Shown here in pieces: positions 1,975-11,015 of a DNA stretch of 64,000 bases. The position numbers and the translations under genes were made by a program. Source of the DNA: a virus (taxonomy: Duplodnaviria > Caudoviricetes); the IMG/VR virus record IMGVR_UViG_3300031867_000018, positions 1 to 64,000 of that record; one strand, 5' to 3'. The notes under the pieces are model-generated. The model made no database searches. It was given only the letters and a program-made list of their open reading frames with translations, and had not been told where the DNA came from. The stretch's first letter is position 1; every line of letters starts with the position of its first letter.

Positions 1975-3246
1975 ATGCAAAATAAAAAAATCACTGTTAT
2001 TGACTCTGTAATGGGTTCAGGTAAGACAAGTTGGGCTATCCGTTACATAAATGATAACCCAAAAACAAATTTCATTTATGTAGCACCGTATCTTGCGGAA
2101 GTAGATAGAATTATGAATAGTTGTCCTAACAGATTCAAAGCACCACATCACAACGGTATTGGCAAGCTAAAAAGTTTTCAGTATTTATTGTCTCTTAATG
2201 CAGATATATGTTGTACTCATGCTTTATTTACTTTATTTGATGAAGAAACCAGAAATTTAATCAGAGAAAAAAAATACACTATCATTATTGATGAGGTTCC
2301 TATGATTATGACCGAGTATGGCAATATGTGTGACGAAGAGAGAAAAGAAAAACTCACTAAAGACGATTTGTCTATGATGTTTAGGAGTGGTTGTCTTATA
2401 AAAAATGAAGATGACGACTTCTTGCGTTGGAATCCTAAAGACGTAAAGATGAAAATTTCTTGGTACAGGGTAAAGAAATATGCGGAAGCAGGATGTTTAT
2501 TATATCTTGATAATTCATTCTTAGCTTGGCAATATAATCCTGAAAATTTCAGAGTATTTGACAACATCTTTATTTTGACATATTTATTTGACGGTAGTTT
2601 AGCTAAACACTATTTTGATGTTTACGGGTTAAAATACGAGAAAAAATCTGTTCAATGTTTATACGGCAAATATAACCTTTGTGAGTTTATGTCTTGTGAC
2701 GGAGCTGTTTTTAAAGAGTTGGTAAATATCTATGAAGGAAAGATGAATTATAACACTGTTCCTAACAGCAAAGATAAAAGAGTTTTAAGAAGTCACCTAT
2801 CAAAAACTTGGTTTGGGTACTCAAAGAATAAAGAATATATAGCGCAGTTAAGAAGAAATTTGTGTAATTATTTTCAGAATAATGAAAACCGTAAAGAAAG
2901 AAATAAAATGTGGACTGCTTTTAAAGACGGGAAGAAAGGGAATAAACAACTCAATGACAAAGGCTATACCTACGCTTTTATCCCTTGTAATTGTAGAGCT
3001 ACAAACGACTTTTCTGATAGAAGCAAACTTGCTTATTGTGTAAACCGATTTTTACACCCTACAATTAAGCATTTCTTCACAAGTAAAGGTATTTCTGTTG
3101 ACGAGGACGCTTTTGCTTTGTCGGAATTTGTACAGTGGATATGGAGAAGCCGCATCAGAAACGGTCAGCCGATAGAAATTTATATACCTTCAAAGCGTAT
3201 GCGTAACTTATTAAAGGAATGGTTGGGTTTATCAATTGAGGAATAA
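1975..3246 (+). CDS. SF2/DEAD-like helicase-fold protein (possible origin-binding or initiator protein)
   Basis: Walker A MGSGKT, Walker B IIIDE, motif VI-like QWIWRSRIR; RBS aaggagg. Confidence 0.75.
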   Translation: MQNKKITVIDSVMGSGKTSWAIRYINDNPKTNFIYVAPYLAEVDRIMNSCPNRFKAPHHNGIGKLKSFQYLLSLNADICCTHALFTLFDEETRNLIREKKYTIIIDEVPMIMTEYGNMCDEERKEKLTKDDLSMMFRSGCLIKNEDDDFLRWNPKDVKMKISWYRVKKYAEAGCLLYLDNSFLAWQYNPENFRVFDNIFILTYLFDGSLAKHYFDVYGLKYEKKSVQCLYGKYNLCEFMSCDGAVFKELVNIYEGKMNYNTVPNSKDKRVLRSHLSKTWFGYSKNKEYIAQLRRNLCNYFQNNENRKERNKMWTAFKDGKKGNKQLNDKGYTYAFIPCNCRATNDFSDRSKLAYCVNRFLHPTIKHFFTSKGISVDEDAFALSEFVQWIWRSRIRNGQPIEIYIPSKRMRNLLKEWLGLSIEE

Positions 3247-3325
3247 GTATAAAATTTACGATATGAAAATTTTTAGAGAATAAATATTTAAAGGTATTAG
3301 TAAGCAATTACGGAGGTAAAAAAAT

Positions 3326-3673
3326 ATGTCAAGACAAAAAACTCTTTTAAAGGCAAATTTAGAGGCGAATATTGATTTTCAATTATTGAAATACTTAAAA
3401 AAAGTACATGAGCATATTAAAGACGACATAGAAGAAGATCATACACTTTGGGATTTTCTCATTGGTCAAATAATTAGGGCTGGATTACCCAATAATCTAT
3501 ATGATGAGTATGGAAATCCTTATATTCCCGTTTTTGAATTATATGAGTTACCGATAAAGAGAGCAGAAGCACTACGAAAGCGACAGAAATACGAAGAAAA
3601 ATTAGAAAAGAAATTTCGCAGGAACAGGTATATGGAAGTTTTTACGGACGAAGAAAACAAGGAGGACACTTAA
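3326..3673 (+). CDS. Hypothetical protein
   Basis: 115-aa ORF with RBS ggaggt. Confidence 0.7.
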   Translation: MSRQKTLLKANLEANIDFQLLKYLKKVHEHIKDDIEEDHTLWDFLIGQIIRAGLPNNLYDEYGNPYIPVFELYELPIKRAEALRKRQKYEEKLEKKFRRNRYMEVFTDEENKEDT

Positions 3674-3678
3674 AATAA

Positions 3679-3876
3679 ATGAGTTATAAAAATGATTATA
3701 ATGATTACAGAAATTACGGTTCTGACTCAACAAAATATGTGAGAATAATATCATCAGATTTTAATGCCCCATTATCAATGGTAGATACAGCCAAGAGGAT
3801 AATCTCTGACGAATGGTTTGATAGAAATTGCCGCAGACTTGCGGAGATAAACCATAGAAAACAGGAGGTAACATAA
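3679..3876 (+). CDS. Hypothetical protein
   Basis: Short ORF packed in the operon, RBS aggagg. Confidence 0.6.
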   Translation: MSYKNDYNDYRNYGSDSTKYVRIISSDFNAPLSMVDTAKRIISDEWFDRNCRRLAEINHRKQEVT

Positions 3877-3877
3877 T

Positions 3878-4243
3878 ATGCAAAAATTAAGATATGACAA
3901 AATAGCTGAAGAAATTATCGCAGTAAACTTACAAAATGGATATACGGTGATCGCTATGAGAAATTATAGTCATCATAAAGACCGATACAATGTTAAGCTG
4001 TATATTAAAGATAATACCGTTGATAATCTTGACTTAATGGAAAAGTTTGAGAAAGTCAAAGTAAAAACTAATGGAACAGACGGTTTGACAAGCCACGATG
4101 ACAGAATTGTAAATGCGGAAATAACGAAATTGATTTCGGAATTATATCGTAGCGGCAAGTTTGATTATTATATTAATCGCTATAAATACCAAATGAAGTG
4201 TTTTGATTATGGAAATGAACACTTTGAGAAGAAAGGATCGTGA
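3878..4243 (+). CDS. Hypothetical protein
   Basis: 121-aa ORF, RBS aggaggt. Confidence 0.7.
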   Translation: MQKLRYDKIAEEIIAVNLQNGYTVIAMRNYSHHKDRYNVKLYIKDNTVDNLDLMEKFEKVKVKTNGTDGLTSHDDRIVNAEITKLISELYRSGKFDYYINRYKYQMKCFDYGNEHFEKKGS

Positions 4244-4247
4244 TAAA

Positions 4248-7200
4248 TTGTTAGATAAGCAATATCATCTGTATTCTGTTGATACTGGACATTTCTACAG
4301 TGGTAAGGAAAGATATTTACACAATATGAATTGTAAATATCGTCAGGAGCGAAACTTTATTAAGAATAAAGCGGAGATTTATAGCAAACAGCTTATTCAA
4401 GATGGGTTAATTGACGAAAAAACTGCCCAGAAATTGTCAAGGATGAATCTCAAAAAATTACATGAGTATAAAGAAAACAACACTCCTTCGGCACAGGTAT
4501 CAATATTGATTGATTTGTATGAGTTGATAATTCATAAGCGTGAAAAAGCCAAAGAATCCAAAGATAAACTTTTGAGACTTTTGGGGAATAAGGTTCAACA
4601 TAATATTAACACCAACGGCACCGATCATATCCGTAATCTTGACGATACCATTCTTAACGATAACAATGTAGTCTCAATGTTTGATAGTTTTTTGAGCCGT
4701 ACCCTCAAGATTGAAGAGGACGAGCTTACCGATAATCTTATCATTGTACAAATATATTACTTTGATGTTTTTAAAGATATAAGTTTCTTTGGGTTTACAT
4801 ACAAAGGTGAAAAATACAGATACTTCACTTCTTCTGCGGGGCAGATACGCAAGAAAAAAACTGTGTTTATCAAAGAGTCGGTATGGCAGAAATATGAAAA
4901 GACACTGATGTGCGGTTTAACGATTGACGATATAAACGCTAAAGGCGGTATAAACACAAGCAAGTTCTTAGCCTATCTCGCTTTGACAAACACCGCAAGT
5001 GATGAGTGGAAAGAGTTTGATATAGATAAATGTATCGTTGTTGAGGATTTCGAGACTAATGTTTGGGGTACTTATGACTTTATTGACGAGACAGATTATT
5101 CGATAACCCGCAAAACAGACTATGTTCCTATACCGCATACTGACGGAGCGGGAATGATTTTACCGAATGCCTTCGGGCAGAAGCAGAAAAACACTATGGT
5201 AAGAATGCCGTGGATAAAAGGTTTACTTTCTGTTTTTCCGTTTGATAAATTTATATCGGAGCATGAAAACGATTCCGAAAATCCTGCGTCCCGAAAAATC
5301 ACCGATATATACGGGAAAGAATGGGATATTTTTGAGGACGAAATACAGGTTATATTTACGAAATCGCAATGTAAACTTTATCGCTATTATACAGATTTTC
5401 AAGCTTATAAGGATAATTACAAGAAATACGGTTGCACCGCAGGTAGATGTAATATTGAGGAAGATAGGGTTAAAAACGCAAAAATCAACTATCAGATGTT
5501 GCAGACTTTGACGGATATCGCGGATGAAGAAATTGATATACTCACCAAACCTTCGGCTGACCGTATTAAAAATATATGCACGAGTAAAGAAACTATGCTT
5601 GATATTTTGGGGGTAACACCGTATAACACTAATCCTACTCCGTTTCAGAAAGCTATTAAGATGTACCCTGCTTTGTTGGGTGACACCTACTGTAAGGATG
5701 TTATCAGAGAAGTTAAGAATAGTTTGTTGAAGAAATATAGAAGTGGCAAATTGGAAGTTAAGGGTAAATATGCCTTTATATTACCCGATTTCTATGCCGC
5801 TTGTGAGTTTTGGTTTTGTGGGATTCAAGAGCCGAAAGGCTTGCTTGATAACGGCGAGGTATTTTGTTGGTTGGCAAGATTCGTAGATAAAATAGATTGT
5901 CTAAGAAGTCCACATTTATTTATGGAACATTCTGTGCGTAAAAATACAGCTAATGTTCAAGATCGCAGAGAAATTTTAAGGGAATGGTTTATTACTGATG
6001 CGTTATATACCAGTACCCACGATTTAATAAGTAAAATTTTACAGTAGACATACTTGCTGTACCCTATGGAAACATAGGGATATAAAACTTCGTGAACCTA
6101 TAAATATAGGGTGTGCATTTTACATTAAGGAATCGTAGGAAATGACGATTAGAAAATGTGCTAACAGGGAAAATCGTACAGCGACAATCCTGTGCTAAGT
6201 ATAGATTGATTATTCTGCATTTCACAAAGGAGGAATGAAATGCCAGAATTTAAAGAGATAGAATATAGAGGAACCTTGGTAAAAGTTAGCAGAAAAGACG
6301 ATGTAATATGGAATGGAACATTAAGAAATCGTTATTATAATGATGATGGATATGCAGTATGTTCTATGAAAATTCCTAATGTTGGTTGGCAAGGAGTTAG
6401 TATTGCCCGATTGGTGGCAACTGCATACATCCCAAATCCACATAATTTACCAGAGGTTAATCACAAAGATTATGACAGAGCAAACGCAAATGTAGAAAAT
6501 TTAGAATGGATTACTCACGCAGACAATGTTAAATATAGCGTATGTAATCGCCCTGATTACTCAGGAGAAAATAATCCTAACTTTGGAAATAGGAAATTAT
6601 CAAAAATATATGCTAAAAATAAGCAGTATGCAATTGAGAAGCAAGGAAGACCGGGCGTACAAAACGGCAGATGTGTAAAAATTAAATTGTTTAAAGACGG
6701 AAAATTAGTTAAGATATTTGATTATATTGGGTTGTGTTGCGAGTATTTAAGAGATGTTGCAAAAGTTACAAATTCTGCAATAGATACTATTAGAAGTAAG
6801 ATAAATCAGTGCGAAAAAGAAAATAAGCCCTATAAAGGATATACATTTGAAAAAATAAGATAAATTGTTCAGAATAATCAATCTATAAAAGCTTAACGAC
6901 TATCGAAAGGATATTTTAATGTCTTATACAGATATTAAAAGAATAACCAAGTAGAGTACAATTTCTGTGAAATTCGGGAATTGAAAGCGCGAAGCACCTA
7001 AGTCCGTGAGGATATGGTGAAGATATAGTCTGCCTCTTTAGAGACGAAGAGGTGTTGATGTTGACGGAGATAAGTCTCTTGTAGTCTCCGACTCGATAAT
7101 AATTACTGTTGCAGAAAGAATGATAAAGAAATATGATATTGTTCCGTTGTATTATAATATGCGTAAAGCATCCCCTGTGCAATTAACTAATGAAAATATT

Positions 7201-9086
7201 TATAACGGACTTATTGCGGCTTTTACAGGTGGCAATATAGGTGTTATCAGTAATGATATATCTAAGATTTGGAACAGCGATGCTATATGTAACGGAAATG
7301 AAGAAGATAAGAAGGAGGCGATAGATTGTATTAAATGTCTCTGTTGTCAAAACAACTTTGTAATCGATTAAATATTAGTCGCTTCATACAGTAATGTATG
7401 TCGAATAAGTTGGTGAACCTATAAATATAGGGTGTCCAATTTACGTTTAGGAACTATAGGAAATGATAGTTAGGAATTGGGCTAACAGGGAAAATCTAAA
7501 TGGTTATATTTTAATCACATGACAATCCTGTGCCAAGTCTTGAGATAATCAAGAAAGGTCAAACGACTATCCCTTTGGTGTTGAAATACACAATAGGAGT
7601 AGGGGCAAGACGAAATTCCTTGCTGGGTGAAAATCCCTTAAATCGAAGTGCCAACTAATCTGCAATATAAACATTGGCAAAAAAGGAGAATTATGATAAA
7701 AGATTATTTCAAAGAAATAAACAGTGAAGAGAAAGCGTATTGGTTAGGATTTCTATACGCAGATGGTTGTGTAGACAATAATTTAAGACATATAAATTTA
7801 GAATTAAATATTAAAGATTATGATCATATCGCAAAGTTTAAAGAAGTATTAGAAACGAATGCAAAAATTGTAATTAAAGAGCCTACTACAACTAAGCCAA
7901 ATAGGTCAGTAAGAATTGTAATATCTTGTAAACAAATGTGTTGTGATTTAGTTAAATTAGGGTGCATGCCCTGTAAATCTGCTAAATTAATATTTCCAAA
8001 CGAAAATCAAGTACCAAATCATTTATTATCTCATTTTATTAGGGGTTATTTTGATGGCGATGGTTGTTTATGTTGTTGTGAAGGGTATAGAAAAAGACCT
8101 GATAGAAGAGGGAAAGAATATCATTATAAAACATGGTTTTTAACATTTGCTGGGACAGAGGATTTTTTATTAGGTATATGTAATTTTTTAGGCGACAAAA
8201 CCAAGTTGATTAAAAACTCGAAGTGTACATATCAATTAAAATTTGGAGGAAATTTAAAAATTAAAAAGTTGATGTCTAAGTTTTACGAAAATGCCAATGT
8301 TTATTTAGACAGAAAACAAATTATTTATCAAAGCTTAATTAGTTAGTAATAAGATTGCAGATTAATAATATAGTCTATTCCCACTTTTGAATAAGTGTTA
8401 AAGTATTGCGAAAGCAAGGGTAGAAAAAGTACGCAAAAACATTGTATAAACCAGAATATCCAAAATTTATAGCAGAAAAAATAGCAAAATATACAAAAGA
8501 TAAACTCCCCGCATTCTTTGAGTATGCCAAAGACAAAAAACCAAACCAAGTCTGCACACGCAACAATAGTTTTGTCAACAAAATATATAATCGTGTAAAG
8601 GATAAAGGAATAAATATTAAGCATTTGGGAATTGAACCTATTGACTACAAATTGTTAATGCGTAACCCGGATATTGTATGCAGTAAAGAAATAGCCGAGA
8701 CCTATGATCGGTTAAACAAACGATACCGTTTTATGCTTAATATGAAAGATGAGCATATCGACAACTTACGGTATGTAGCTTGCCGATTAAGAGACGAGTT
8801 TGCCGAGATCGGATATTCCAACGAAATGGTGACAGATATGTTGGTTGAGTATTTGTACGGCAGCGAGAAACGATATAAACAAGTATTGTGGTTCTGTTAC
8901 GGTCAATATATAGTCAATAATCTTTCGCATAATATTGTTATTCCAAAGAAAAGAATATTTCAATGCGCCAGCTGTGGCGAATGGTTTGAGGTGTATGCAC
9001 ATTCGACAAAAATAATGTGTGATGCCTGTGCAGAGTTGTCATATAAAGAAAGATATAAAAAATATAACAAAAAACGAAGAAAATAA
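4248..9086 (+). CDS. yonO: YonO-like single-subunit DNA-dependent RNA polymerase; exons 4248-6045, 7055-7368, 8430-9086 (922 aa spliced)
   Basis: Motifs SAGQIR, HTDGAG, RMPWIKGL, LRSPHL. Splicing restores ILQ-F-DVDGDK (catalytic DxDGD) and NNFVID-YAKTLYKP. Exons total 2769 nt, in frame. C-terminal CxxC...CxxC. TTG start after gaaagga. Confidence 0.9.
6046..7054 (+). ncRNA. Group I self-splicing intron 1 in the RNA polymerase gene
   Basis: Exon ends in U pairing with G in P1 (acagt/gctgt); core aatcctgtgc, ttaacgacta and gaagatatagtct (P7); terminal G7054; removal restores frame. Confidence 0.92.
6240..6863 (+). CDS. Intron-encoded HNH homing endonuclease
   Basis: RLVATAYIPNPHNLPEVNHKDYDRANANVENLEW; ORF looped out by an 18-bp perfect stem (6200-6217 / 6870-6887). 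Confidence 0.9.
   Translation: MPEFKEIEYRGTLVKVSRKDDVIWNGTLRNRYYNDDGYAVCSMKIPNVGWQGVSIARLVATAYIPNPHNLPEVNHKDYDRANANVENLEWITHADNVKYSVCNRPDYSGENNPNFGNRKLSKIYAKNKQYAIEKQGRPGVQNGRCVKIKLFKDGKLVKIFDYIGLCCEYLRDVAKVTNSAIDTIRSKINQCEKENKPYKGYTFEKIR
7369..8429 (+). ncRNA. Group I self-splicing intron 2 in the RNA polymerase gene
   Basis: P1 cgat|taa...ttagtcg with U.G at the splice site; caaacgacta and ataatatagtct (P7); terminal G8429; removal joins D to YAKTLYKP. Confidence 0.92.
7693..8346 (+). CDS. Intron-encoded LAGLIDADG homing endonuclease
   Basis: Two motifs YWLGFLYADG and HFIRGYFDGDG; ATG 7693 after aaggag; flanked by an 11-bp stem 7656-7666 / 8354-8364. Confidence 0.9.
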   Translation: MIKDYFKEINSEEKAYWLGFLYADGCVDNNLRHINLELNIKDYDHIAKFKEVLETNAKIVIKEPTTTKPNRSVRIVISCKQMCCDLVKLGCMPCKSAKLIFPNENQVPNHLLSHFIRGYFDGDGCLCCCEGYRKRPDRRGKEYHYKTWFLTFAGTEDFLLGICNFLGDKTKLIKNSKCTYQLKFGGNLKIKKLMSKFYENANVYLDRKQIIYQSLIS

Positions 9087-9218
9087 CCACAAACTTACAG
9101 AGGGTCAAAATACCGCTATTTACGGGTGTGGTCTTTTTATCACAACCGTTGCTTACGGTATTCGGTTTGTGTACTTATGGAGGATAGTATCTCCAATTTT
9201 CAGGAAAGGGCTGGTCTA

Positions 9219-9524
9219 TTGCGTATAAATCAGGAACAAATCATTGAAGAAGTCTCGAATGAAACCTGCATATCAAACAGAGTCGTGAAAGAGGTTCTTC
9301 GTGGACTTGGTAAAGTTGTTTCAAAGAAATTAGCTGAAAGTCCCTATAAAAAAATGGTTATAGACTTGTGGGAAGGGTTTAAAATCAAGCGTTACTATCA
9401 GGAAGAAAAAGATTACTCAAAGGGAGTGGTCAAAGACATAAAATGTTCTGAACGTGTTGTAATTAAACCGACTGTGACCCGCACATTTAAAGAAAAGTTA
9501 AATAAACAGATTTTTGGAAATTGA
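9219..9524 (+). CDS. Divergent HU/IHF-like DNA-binding protein
   Basis: INQEQIIEEVSNETCIS...VKEVL...IKPTVTRTFKEKLN pattern; TTG start after gaaaggg. Confidence 0.6.
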   Translation: MRINQEQIIEEVSNETCISNRVVKEVLRGLGKVVSKKLAESPYKKMVIDLWEGFKIKRYYQEEKDYSKGVVKDIKCSERVVIKPTVTRTFKEKLNKQIFGN

Positions 9525-9591
9525 TCTTCGGGTGGTGTCGTTACTTTGTGGCGGCATTGCCCTAAAAAATAAATATAAAGGAGCTGAGAAT

Positions 9592-9765
9592 TTGTTCTCA
9601 ATCACAAAAGACGAAGCATTTTACCTTCGCAAGAATGGTCATTCGGATAGTGTTAAGGTGACACATAGTCGATATAAAAAATATTTTGCAATAGAGTGTA
9701 AAGATGTATATGATGCTTTAAAACGATTCAATAAAGACCGTATAACAACAAAGAACTTCGGATAA
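9592..9765 (+). CDS. Small hypothetical protein
   Basis: TTG start after aaggag, within ORF 9514-9765. Confidence 0.5.
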   Translation: MFSITKDEAFYLRKNGHSDSVKVTHSRYKKYFAIECKDVYDALKRFNKDRITTKNFG

Positions 9766-9794
9766 CCGAAAATAAACCGTAAAGGTGGAATTTT

Positions 9795-11015
9795 ATGGGT
9801 AAAACCCTATTTTTTGATACTTGTGCTTTACTGAATGTTCAAGAAAAAGCATTTGGACAGCATTTTGTAATTGCACAGAAAACTTTGAAAGAACTTGAAA
9901 ATATTAAGACTTCCCGTAATAAAGATGTCGATATAAAGCGTAAAGCCAACACATTGACACATCTACTGGATAAAAATTATGGTAAATACACCGTTGAAAT
10001 AGGTTGGTTTTCTGAAAATATCGAGGATAACCTAATTCCCGATAATGAAATTATGCTTGCAGCTAAATCTTATATGGAAGATACAAAAGAAGATATAATA
10101 TTTGTATCGGACGATATAGCCTGTAAAAATTTAGCAAGAAATGTTTTCGGGTTTGAGTGTGTGGGGTCTGCTGAATTGTTTGGTAATAGTATTGACAGAT
10201 ATAAAGGCTATAAAGAAGTGACACTCAGTGATGAACAGTTAAGCGAGTTTTACTCAAACATTTCAGTTAATACATACGATTGTTTGACTAATGAATATTT
10301 TATAATCAAGAACTCGGTGGGTGAAACTATAGACACTCAAAAATGGAACGGGACGGGATATGTTGCCGTAACACCTAAAACATTCAAATCAAGCGAAATG
10401 GGAAATATTAAACCTTTAGACGAAATACAGACTTGTGCTATGGATTCGTTGGTAAACAACGAAATATCTGTATTTTATGGCAGGTCTGGATCAGGCAAAA
10501 CTACCCTGCCTCTTGCTTATGCAATGGCAGAAATAGAGAAGCATAGATATGATAAACTTATCATCATATATTCTTATGAAACTCTTAAAGGTGCAAAGAC
10601 TTTAGGTTTTGAAAAAGGCGACCACACAACAAAGTTATTAAATTCAGCGTCTATAGGTAATATATTAGCTTCAAAATTCGGAGATATTACAGGTGTTGAA
10701 TACCTAATGGCAAAAGGTAAGCTTGAAATCTTGCCTACTGCAAATATTCGTGGTGTTGAGTTTAAAAACAGTGTTGTATTGGTAACGGAAGCCCAAAATC
10801 TTGATGTTTACACCCTCAAAACTATTATTCAGCGATGCAAAGACGGCTGCAAACAGATTTACGAGGGTGATATTATTGAGCAGAAAGATACGAATATATC
10901 AATGCTTGGTATGGACAGGCTTATAGAGGTATTCAAAGGGCATCCTTCTTTGGGATGTGTTAAATTAAAGAATAATTACAGAAGTCAGCTTAGTGAATTG
11001 GCTGATAAAATGTAA
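9795..11015 (+). CDS. phoH: PIN domain-PhoH ATPase fusion protein
   Basis: N-terminal FFDTCALL...ELENIK...DNEI...VSDD (PIN); GRSGSGKT, IRGVEF, TEAQN, EGDIIEQKD (PhoH). Confidence 0.88.
   Translation: MGKTLFFDTCALLNVQEKAFGQHFVIAQKTLKELENIKTSRNKDVDIKRKANTLTHLLDKNYGKYTVEIGWFSENIEDNLIPDNEIMLAAKSYMEDTKEDIIFVSDDIACKNLARNVFGFECVGSAELFGNSIDRYKGYKEVTLSDEQLSEFYSNISVNTYDCLTNEYFIIKNSVGETIDTQKWNGTGYVAVTPKTFKSSEMGNIKPLDEIQTCAMDSLVNNEISVFYGRSGSGKTTLPLAYAMAEIEKHRYDKLIIIYSYETLKGAKTLGFEKGDHTTKLLNSASIGNILASKFGDITGVEYLMAKGKLEILPTANIRGVEFKNSVVLVTEAQNLDVYTLKTIIQRCKDGCKQIYEGDIIEQKDTNISMLGMDRLIEVFKGHPSLGCVKLKNNYRSQLSELADKM

Follow-up and report, generated by a model that had tools for sequence, protein, structure and literature searches.

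We analysed a split gene for a predicted YonO-type RNA polymerase on the plus strand of the virus record IMGVR_UViG_3300031867_000018, which comes from a bovine gut metagenome assembly. The window comprised the first 64 kb of this 109,015-bp record, which ends in direct terminal repeats and represents a 109-kb phage genome. The original prediction had placed three in-frame exons, two introns and a joined product of 922 amino acids at this locus, and the analysis reproduced all of these coordinates. The gene consists of the following parts:

4248-6045, + strand: yonO-like exon 1; 599 codons and the first base of a Phe codon, with a TTG start
6046-7054, + strand: predicted group I intron 1; 1009 nt, SPO1-type family, starting inside TAG 6045-6047 and ending with G7054
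7055-7368, + strand: yonO-like exon 2; 104 codons preceded by the two remaining Phe-codon bases, ending ...NNFVID
7369-8429, + strand: predicted group I intron 2; 1061 nt, in the ribozyme family of intron 1, starting with an in-frame TAA and ending with G8429
8430-9086, + strand: yonO-like exon 3; 218 codons and a stop, beginning YAKTLYKP

The joined exons form 2769 nt in a single frame, corresponding to 922 codons and a stop. The TTG start at 4248 is preceded by an AAAGGA ribosome-binding site about 10 nt upstream, and the proteins of relatives begin with MLDKQY. At junction 1, T6045 and TT7055-7056 make up the Phe codon immediately preceding the catalytic DVDGD motif, which is encoded at the start of exon 2 and was invariant in 24 relatives. 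At junction 2, GAT/TAC encodes D/YAK (the slash marks the point of insertion). The interruption of a Phe codon before DVDGD and of the D/YAK motif thus stood as originally described. The predicted ligated-exon sequences are ...CAGT/TTGATGTT... for junction 1 and ...ATCGAT/TACGCA... for junction 2. The unspliced frame meets a stop at each 5' junction, TAG at 6045-6047 and TAA at 7369-7371, again in agreement with the earlier claim.

The identity of the protein was assessed by profile, translated and full-length comparison. Exon 1 alone matched the Pfam RdRP family PF05183 at 26.5 bits (cut-off 23.8), a family that the relatives also carry, and in tblastn it reached 43-49% identity to SPbeta-like YonO over 78-97% of the exon (E about 1e-130). 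The results showed that the spliced protein is colinear with the intronless SPbeta YonO over both junctions and over the C-terminal zinc-ribbon tail, which in exon 3 takes the form of a Cys4 zinc-ribbon-like sequence. At junction 1, ISKILQ-F-DVDGDKSL of this phage aligned with ISKLLQFDNDGDKAL of SPbeta YonO, and at junction 2, NNFVID-YAKTLYKP aligned with NNFTIDFAKTLFMP. Furthermore, the spliced protein kept 318 of the 333 columns that were invariant in 24 intronless relatives. SPbeta YonO is an orthologous single-chain polymerase with the same Asp triad motif; the differences are that SPbeta yonO has no intron and that the N-terminal region is about 80 amino acids longer in this phage. Neither the polymerase profile nor the HNH and LAGLIDADG proteins found a match in sequence searches of the PDB, and an AlphaFold model of the relative P0016, built from a 24-sequence alignment, had a mean predicted local distance difference test score of only 46.4. 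By its sequence the gene is a YonO-type gene, predicted to encode a single-chain two-barrel RNA polymerase, which upholds the identity proposed in the original prediction.

YonO functions as a DNA-dependent RNA polymerase that transcribes the SPbeta late operon, and its Asp triad is essential (Forrest et al. 2017, PMC5467207). Because the essential aspartate triad sits in exon 2, an active polymerase would require both splicing events, and translation of unspliced RNA would be expected to yield only a truncated protein without the triad, as had been presumed from the 5' junction stops. This requirement, with DVDGD in exon 2, and the role of YonO in driving the late genes of SPbeta (PMC5467207) are the points in favour of a regulatory checkpoint, in which late transcription would be timed or gated through the two splicing steps, which might for instance sense guanosine nucleotides or the state of translation. 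That proposal is weighed below against the distribution of the introns.

Intron 1 contains the helices and the gene listed here:

6040-6061, + strand: P1; exon UACAGU (6040-6045) pairs with the guide GCUGUA (6056-6061), from sequence and minimum-free-energy fold
6062-6079, + strand: P2 hairpin; CCCUAUG, GAAA loop, CAUAGGG
6080-6170, + strand: 5' core; covariance-model match of 105.9 bits, E 8e-27
6200-6887, + strand: P6a; perfect 18-bp stem of 6200-6217 with 6870-6887, closing the endonuclease-gene loop
6240-6863, + strand: putative HNH homing endonuclease gene; 207 amino acids, own AGGAGG ribosome-binding site, in the P6a loop
6898-7054, + strand: 3' core; P7, P7.1/P7.2, P3 3' strand, P8, P9 and terminal G7054

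The predicted 5' splice site is marked by the U6045.G6056 pair in P1. The 5' core contains the P3 5' strand CUUCG (6088-6092), two covarying P3-P4 hairpins, a UAA junction and the beginning of P4, in which ACAGGG 6164-6169 pairs with CCUGU 6189-6193 (P4 to P6 were assigned by homology to the Rfam-aligned SPO1 intron). In the 3' core, P7 is formed by GACUAU (6898-6903) and AUAGUC (7025-7030) with two hairpins between them; P7.1/P7.2 and the names of the two P3-P4 hairpins are our own positional labels. The P3 3' strand CGAAG (6990-6994) is the partner of CUUCG, P8 is UCC-GUGA-GGA (7003-7012), and P9 pairs CCUCUU (7033-7038) with AAGAGG (7047-7052). The fold of this 3' core had a z score of -3.39. 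The open reading frame (ORF) in the P6a loop matched Pfam HNH_3 at 27.4 bits (cut-off 24.8) and an HNH family in PHROG at E 3e-21. Its product shared 63% identity with the ORF in the L087 intron, and its similarity to the SPO1 nickase I-HmuI was weak and confined to the HNH core (33% over 45 amino acids).

Intron 2 is built on the same plan, with its gene in another loop:

7365-7381, + strand: P1; exon CGAU and intron UAA (7365-7371) pair with UUAGUCG (7375-7381)
7385-7400, + strand: P2; CAUACA, GUAA loop, UGUAUG
7401-7491, + strand: 5' core; covariance-model match of 99.8 bits, E 3.9e-25
7565-7570, + strand: P7 5' strand; GACUAU, partner AUAGUC at 8370-8375
7656-8364, + strand: P8; perfect 11-bp stem of 7656-7666 with 8354-8364, closing the endonuclease-gene loop
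7693-8346, + strand: putative double-motif LAGLIDADG homing endonuclease gene; 217 amino acids, ATG 7693, GGAG ribosome-binding site, in the P8 loop

Here the predicted 5' splice site carries the pair U7368.G7378. P3 is formed by GUUGG (7409-7413) and CCAAC (7651-7655), and P4 by ACAGGG (7485-7490) and CCUGU (7527-7531). The ORF in the P8 loop matched Pfam LAGLIDADG_3 at 29.6 bits (cut-off 22.5) and a PHROG endonuclease family at E 1.7e-55. Two side observations concern this loop. A perfect 13-nt inverted repeat (7667-7679 with 8292-8304) pairs the LAGLIDADG leader, just upstream of the ribosome-binding site, with the 3' end of the coding sequence, and it could extend P8 or restrict translation of the endonuclease. 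In addition, gut metagenome contigs contained relatives of intron 2 (region 7654-8370) in which a 21-nt hairpin, CACCC-UUAU-GGGGUG, replaces the whole LAGLIDADG loop; these are ORF-less versions of the intron 2 ribozyme.

We next considered the evidence that both inserts belong to group I. Each insert has U paired with G in P1 at its 5' splice site and closes with a G; a GNRA-capped P2, the P7 strands GACUAU and AUAGUC, P8 and P9 are also present in both, and joining at G7054 and G8429 restores the frame and the motifs of intronless alleles. In L060 and L087, changes in the exon are matched by changes in the P1 guide; at site 2, the ID/YAK junction, the pairing is UGAU with GUCA in L060 and CGAU with GUCG here. 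P7 also covaries, being GACCAU with AUGGUC in Goe11. In a 13-intron alignment, 98.8% of the cells in three local helices could pair, compared with 72.5% after shuffling and 35-45% when the partner strand was slid, and compensatory changes occurred in 16 of the 20 pairs of these helices. The long-range 5-bp P3, which forms the pseudoknot, was complementary in 13/15 introns with 11 different sequences (for example CUUCG with CGAAG in intron 1, GUUGG with CCAAC in intron 2 and CCCAG with CUGGG in SPO1), and one G.U pair was found, in Semele. This helix was placed upstream of GUGAAC; an alternative P3 5' strand, GUGC before the UAA junction, was rejected, since its covariation places it in a local stem (helix 2).

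A covariance model was then built from 11 other introns, with both introns of this phage excluded. It gave exactly two matches in 64 kb, at 6080-6170 and 7401-7491, and all 20 of its pairs were standard in both introns. Across the 109-kb genome, only two copies of the intron core were found, both in yonO. Intron 1 has a 5' core homologous to that of the SPO1 gene 31 intron (73% identity), whose record is annotated 'contains intron', and to inserts splitting nrdD and DNA polymerase genes of Enterococcus, Clostridium, Lactobacillus and Staphylococcus phages. The partial Rfam alignment of the SPO1 intron marks P4, P5, P6 and the P7 5' strand, and the elements so marked were found in both introns here (ACAGGG...AAUCCUGUGC...AACGACUA). 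Core anatomy, covariation and the independent covariance model together indicate that both inserts are SPO1-type group I introns, lying at the junctions given in the original prediction. The two 5' cores were 78% identical on a 97-column alignment (83% over 90 nt by BLAST). Each was equally or more similar, up to 85%, to introns of other phages, so there was no sign of a recent intragenomic copy, and a derivation of one intron from the other was rejected.

The SPO1 gene 31 intron, which is reportedly self-splicing, is one of the closest known likenesses to the introns here. The layout of P3, P4, P7 and P8 is like that of the introns here, and in SPO1 as in intron 1 an HNH endonuclease is encoded in a peripheral loop and the host gene is essential and conserved. 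The differences are that the SPO1 host gene encodes a DNA polymerase and that its ORF lies in P8, whereas that of intron 1 lies in P6a.

A survey of yonO homologues for intron-plus and intron-minus alleles, proposed in the original prediction, recovered both types, with intronless alleles in the majority. Among the 120 closest protein clusters, 107 were 882-935 amino acids long, matching the predicted 922, and are therefore intronless. Eleven ended exactly at ...NNFVID, which indicates a site-2 intron, and only the ORF of this phage itself ended at ...SKILQ, the position of site 1. Occupancy among close relatives was thus about 9% for site 2 and about 1% for site 1. In IMG/VR, 78/80 loci were colinear with no insert, and the other 2/80 were interrupted at site 2 by an intron of 1227 nt whose P5 loop holds a GIY-YIG/NUMOD3 gene. 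All four presence/absence states were found: both introns (this phage), site 2 only, site 1 only, and neither. The relative P0002 (84% identical) stops at site 2 and is without intron 1. Intron 1 alone was seen in a contig of about 92% identity that came from different gut runs of cattle and goat; it spans 5304-7161, with the intron at the identical place, and beyond this, exactly 279 nt (207 + 72 exon bases) stand where this phage has 1340 nt, so this contig precisely lacks intron 2.

Other YonO-type genes were split at nearby positions. In the L087 YonO, found through the HNH protein search and 54% identical to that of this phage, an HNH intron homologous to intron 1 follows the codon of the first Asp, which puts it 5 nt downstream of site 1, and there is no site-2 intron. 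Among more distant YonO-like genes, of about 26% identity, L091 was split at D/FDSD, and L089, L090, the Enterocloster phage CB457P1 and the gut contig MT835481 were split at DxD/GD. CB457P1 (L005:1748-3075) is a cultured, published phage whose YonO-like gene appears as three 'hypothetical' coding sequences separated by two unannotated group I introns, one about 540 and the other about 515 nt long, neither with an ORF. The YonO-like genes of CB457P1 / CB473P3 and MT835481 are thus split at the same hot spots and by the same ribozyme family as that of this phage (CB457P1 at DFD/GD and at ...ELD/ beside the site-2 motif, MT835481 at DFD/GD). They differ in that Enterocloster-type YonO is only about 26% identical, the CB457P1 introns have no ORF, and the catalytic insertion lies 11 nt downstream of site 1.

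In SPbeta-like Bacillus phages, 16/24 records contained a site-2 intron. In phi3T, phi3Ts, SPR and SPbetaL3 it measured 400 nt and had no ORF, and in Goe11, Goe14, BUCT083 and SPbetaL4-L7 it contained a GIY-YIG gene. These introns interrupt the same gene family at the same point as intron 2, between ...NNF(T/V)ID and (F/Y)AKTL, and share its ribozyme family, its UAA start and its ...GGGUA-N5-6-G end. They differ from intron 2, with its LAGLIDADG gene in P8, by holding a GIY-YIG/NUMOD3 gene in P5 or no ORF; on the same site-2 ribozyme, GIY-YIG occupied P5 in Goe11 and L060, and phi3T had no ORF. The introns of Goe11, phi3T and L060 also start with UAA, an in-frame stop at the 5' junction. One ribozyme family therefore occurs with three unrelated endonuclease families, HNH in P6a, LAGLIDADG in P8 and GIY-YIG in P5. 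The SPbeta-like records annotate two yonO fragments (yonO_1/yonO_2, phi3T_60/59) and no intron.

This distribution bears directly on the checkpoint. About 90% of close relatives, and SPbeta as well, have neither intron; all four presence/absence combinations occur; and the position of insertion at the catalytic motif shifts by 5 to 11 nt from one lineage to another, which points to repeated invasion rather than a conserved device. Moreover, the introns bear predicted homing endonucleases, and the same ribozyme family splits nrdD and DNA polymerase genes of other phages. The patchy occupancy, the four allele states, the endonucleases and the conservation of site 1 lent no support to the original suggestion that splicing gates late expression, which we regard as highly improbable, and there was no sign of the phage using the introns for control.

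Conservation of the insertion sites was assessed on 58 distinct intronless alleles, and the 24 nt around site 1 fell in the 99.3rd percentile of nucleotide conservation. Group I introns prefer conserved sites of host genes (Swithers 2009, PMC2814812). In this gene, families of intron-encoded endonucleases and a precise intron-minus allele occur together, as expected of homing introns. The predominance of intronless alleles, the presence of all four states, the endonuclease genes and the conservation of site 1 point to selfish homing to conserved targets, and patchy occupancy, endonucleases and a conserved site 1 are together its signature. We therefore consider it very probable that two mobile group I introns invaded yonO and persist there as self-splicing, homing elements without a control role for the phage.

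Three points weigh against this interpretation. The conservation of DNA at site 2 was moderate, in the 81st percentile among the same alleles. The Rfam Intron_gpI model (RF00028) gave no match, either over the whole window at the gathering threshold or over 5900-8600 at E 10; this negative carries little weight because the SPO1 intron, used as a positive control, also failed this general model (25.6 vs 50 bits), which is insensitive to this ORF-bearing intron family. Splicing, moreover, is inferred from sequence, with no RNA run containing this sequence. The silence of Rfam and the lack of RNA would also suit a dead gene, in which the inserts have lost splicing and yonO has decayed to a pseudogene, or an assembly artefact. 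However, the core helices are all intact, with the 20 model pairs standard in both introns, and the exons remain in frame and retain 318/333 invariant residues. An artefact is further opposed by the record being a 109-kb phage genome with terminal repeats and by the independent contig from other runs with intron 1 at the same place. We judge a dead gene or artefact most improbable.

Under selfish homing, the pre-mRNA would be produced by the host RNA polymerase, and each intron would fold and excise itself by guanosine-initiated two-step transesterification, the first attack falling after the U.G pair of P1 and the second step ligating the exons after the terminal G. The ligated mRNA would then be translated into the 922-amino-acid polymerase. 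Stops at the 5' junction are a usual feature that keeps ribosomes off the ribozyme, as described for the T4 td intron, and here the in-frame stop at each 5' junction would halt ribosomes before they unfold the ribozyme. The HNH and LAGLIDADG genes would be translated from their own ribosome-binding sites, and the endonucleases would cut or nick the intronless yonO of co-infecting relatives, whose repair would copy the intron in. On this reading, the introns sit at DxDGD and ID/YAK because target phages share conserved DNA there that is unable to mutate away. Group I introns with homing endonucleases at conserved sites of essential phage genes, polymerases included, are textbook elements.

The same endonucleases could also serve in interference, by cutting the intronless polymerase gene of co-infecting rivals at its catalytic motif and thereby blocking their late transcription. 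Introns have been published in phage multi-subunit RNA polymerase genes (PMC11620839, PMC2919709). In PhiPA3, gp210 is encoded by an HNH intron beside the conserved aspartates of the virion RNA polymerase beta-subunit gene and inhibits PhiKZ (Birkholz et al. 2024, PMC11620839). This intron resembles intron 1 in being group I-type, in carrying an HNH gene and in lying beside the catalytic aspartates of a phage two-barrel RNA polymerase; it differs in that PhiPA3 is a jumbo Pseudomonas phage with a multi-subunit polymerase and one intron, and in that the competitive function was demonstrated there. In this phage, the two endonuclease genes look intact, and the sites that they presumably target show conservation in intronless relatives of the same habitat. 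Homologues of the intron 1 HNH gene are also free-standing directly upstream of YonO-like genes. However, many relatives, such as phi3T and CB457P1, keep ORF-less introns, which cannot act as weapons, and pure selfish homing explains the pattern equally well. An interference role is compatible with the data and would supplement selfish homing, not replace it; we hold it to be possible but rather unlikely. On the same rather unlikely view, the clustering of three different insertion points no more than 11 nt from the DxDGD codons, like the occurrence of three endonuclease families on one ribozyme family, would record an arms race over this single target.

The free-standing HNH genes lie in L088:2348-5523 and L092:2303-5427, each upstream of a PF05183 YonO-like gene of about 820 amino acids, which suggests that both the free-standing and the intron-borne form associate with this polymerase gene. 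Two further HNH loci were observed. In L093:2351-4510, a homologue lies immediately upstream of a crAss-type major capsid gene (PF23898, E 1.5e-213). In L095:364-4285, a related HNH-bearing intron separates an ORF of 615 amino acids from one of 342, neither with a Pfam match or detectable similarity to the YonO of this phage; at 957 amino acids together they have a YonO-like size and may represent a very divergent polymerase.

The original prediction knew of no described intron in a YonO gene. At the sequence level this did not hold, given phi3T, SPR, Goe11, Goe14 and the Enterocloster phages; it stood for the literature, in which our search found no paper describing an intron in yonO. Introns of this type in yonO are public and frequent as sequences and are unannotated, as in phi3T. 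Three features are specific to this phage: a single yonO gene with two introns that each carry an endonuclease gene, the precise placement of site 1 behind the first Phe-codon base, and the LAGLIDADG gene in P8 of a site-2 intron. Conceptually, the locus is an ordinary case of a known selfish element. Its consequences are for annotation, which routinely breaks YonO-type genes up into two or three ORFs labelled 'hypothetical' and can miss the piece that encodes the catalytic aspartates; here exon 2 is visible only as an 83-amino-acid ORF. As a result of such fragmentation, gene catalogues of gut and Bacillus phages under-report the YonO-type polymerase. The introns also form a natural series, in which a single ribozyme is combined with endonucleases of three families, each in its own loop, at four or more points of one gene and with every presence/absence state represented, and the cultivable members (phi3T, Goe11, SPbeta and the Enterocloster phages) are material for homing and competition experiments.

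In the surroundings of the gene, an ORF at 1975-3246 matched PHROG 2467, of unknown function, and the stop codon of the upstream neighbour gene lies at 4241-4243, before the TTG start at 4248. A promoter and terminator scan of 3200-9900 gave nothing usefully above shuffles, and its sole plus-strand 'terminator' call, at 7031-7054, is the P9 hairpin of intron 1. Downstream, plus-strand genes encode PhoH, an exonuclease, terminase, portal and tail proteins. The yonO-like gene thus heads a plus-strand block of packaging, head and tail genes, and this layout ahead of the late genes is common to this phage and SPbeta.

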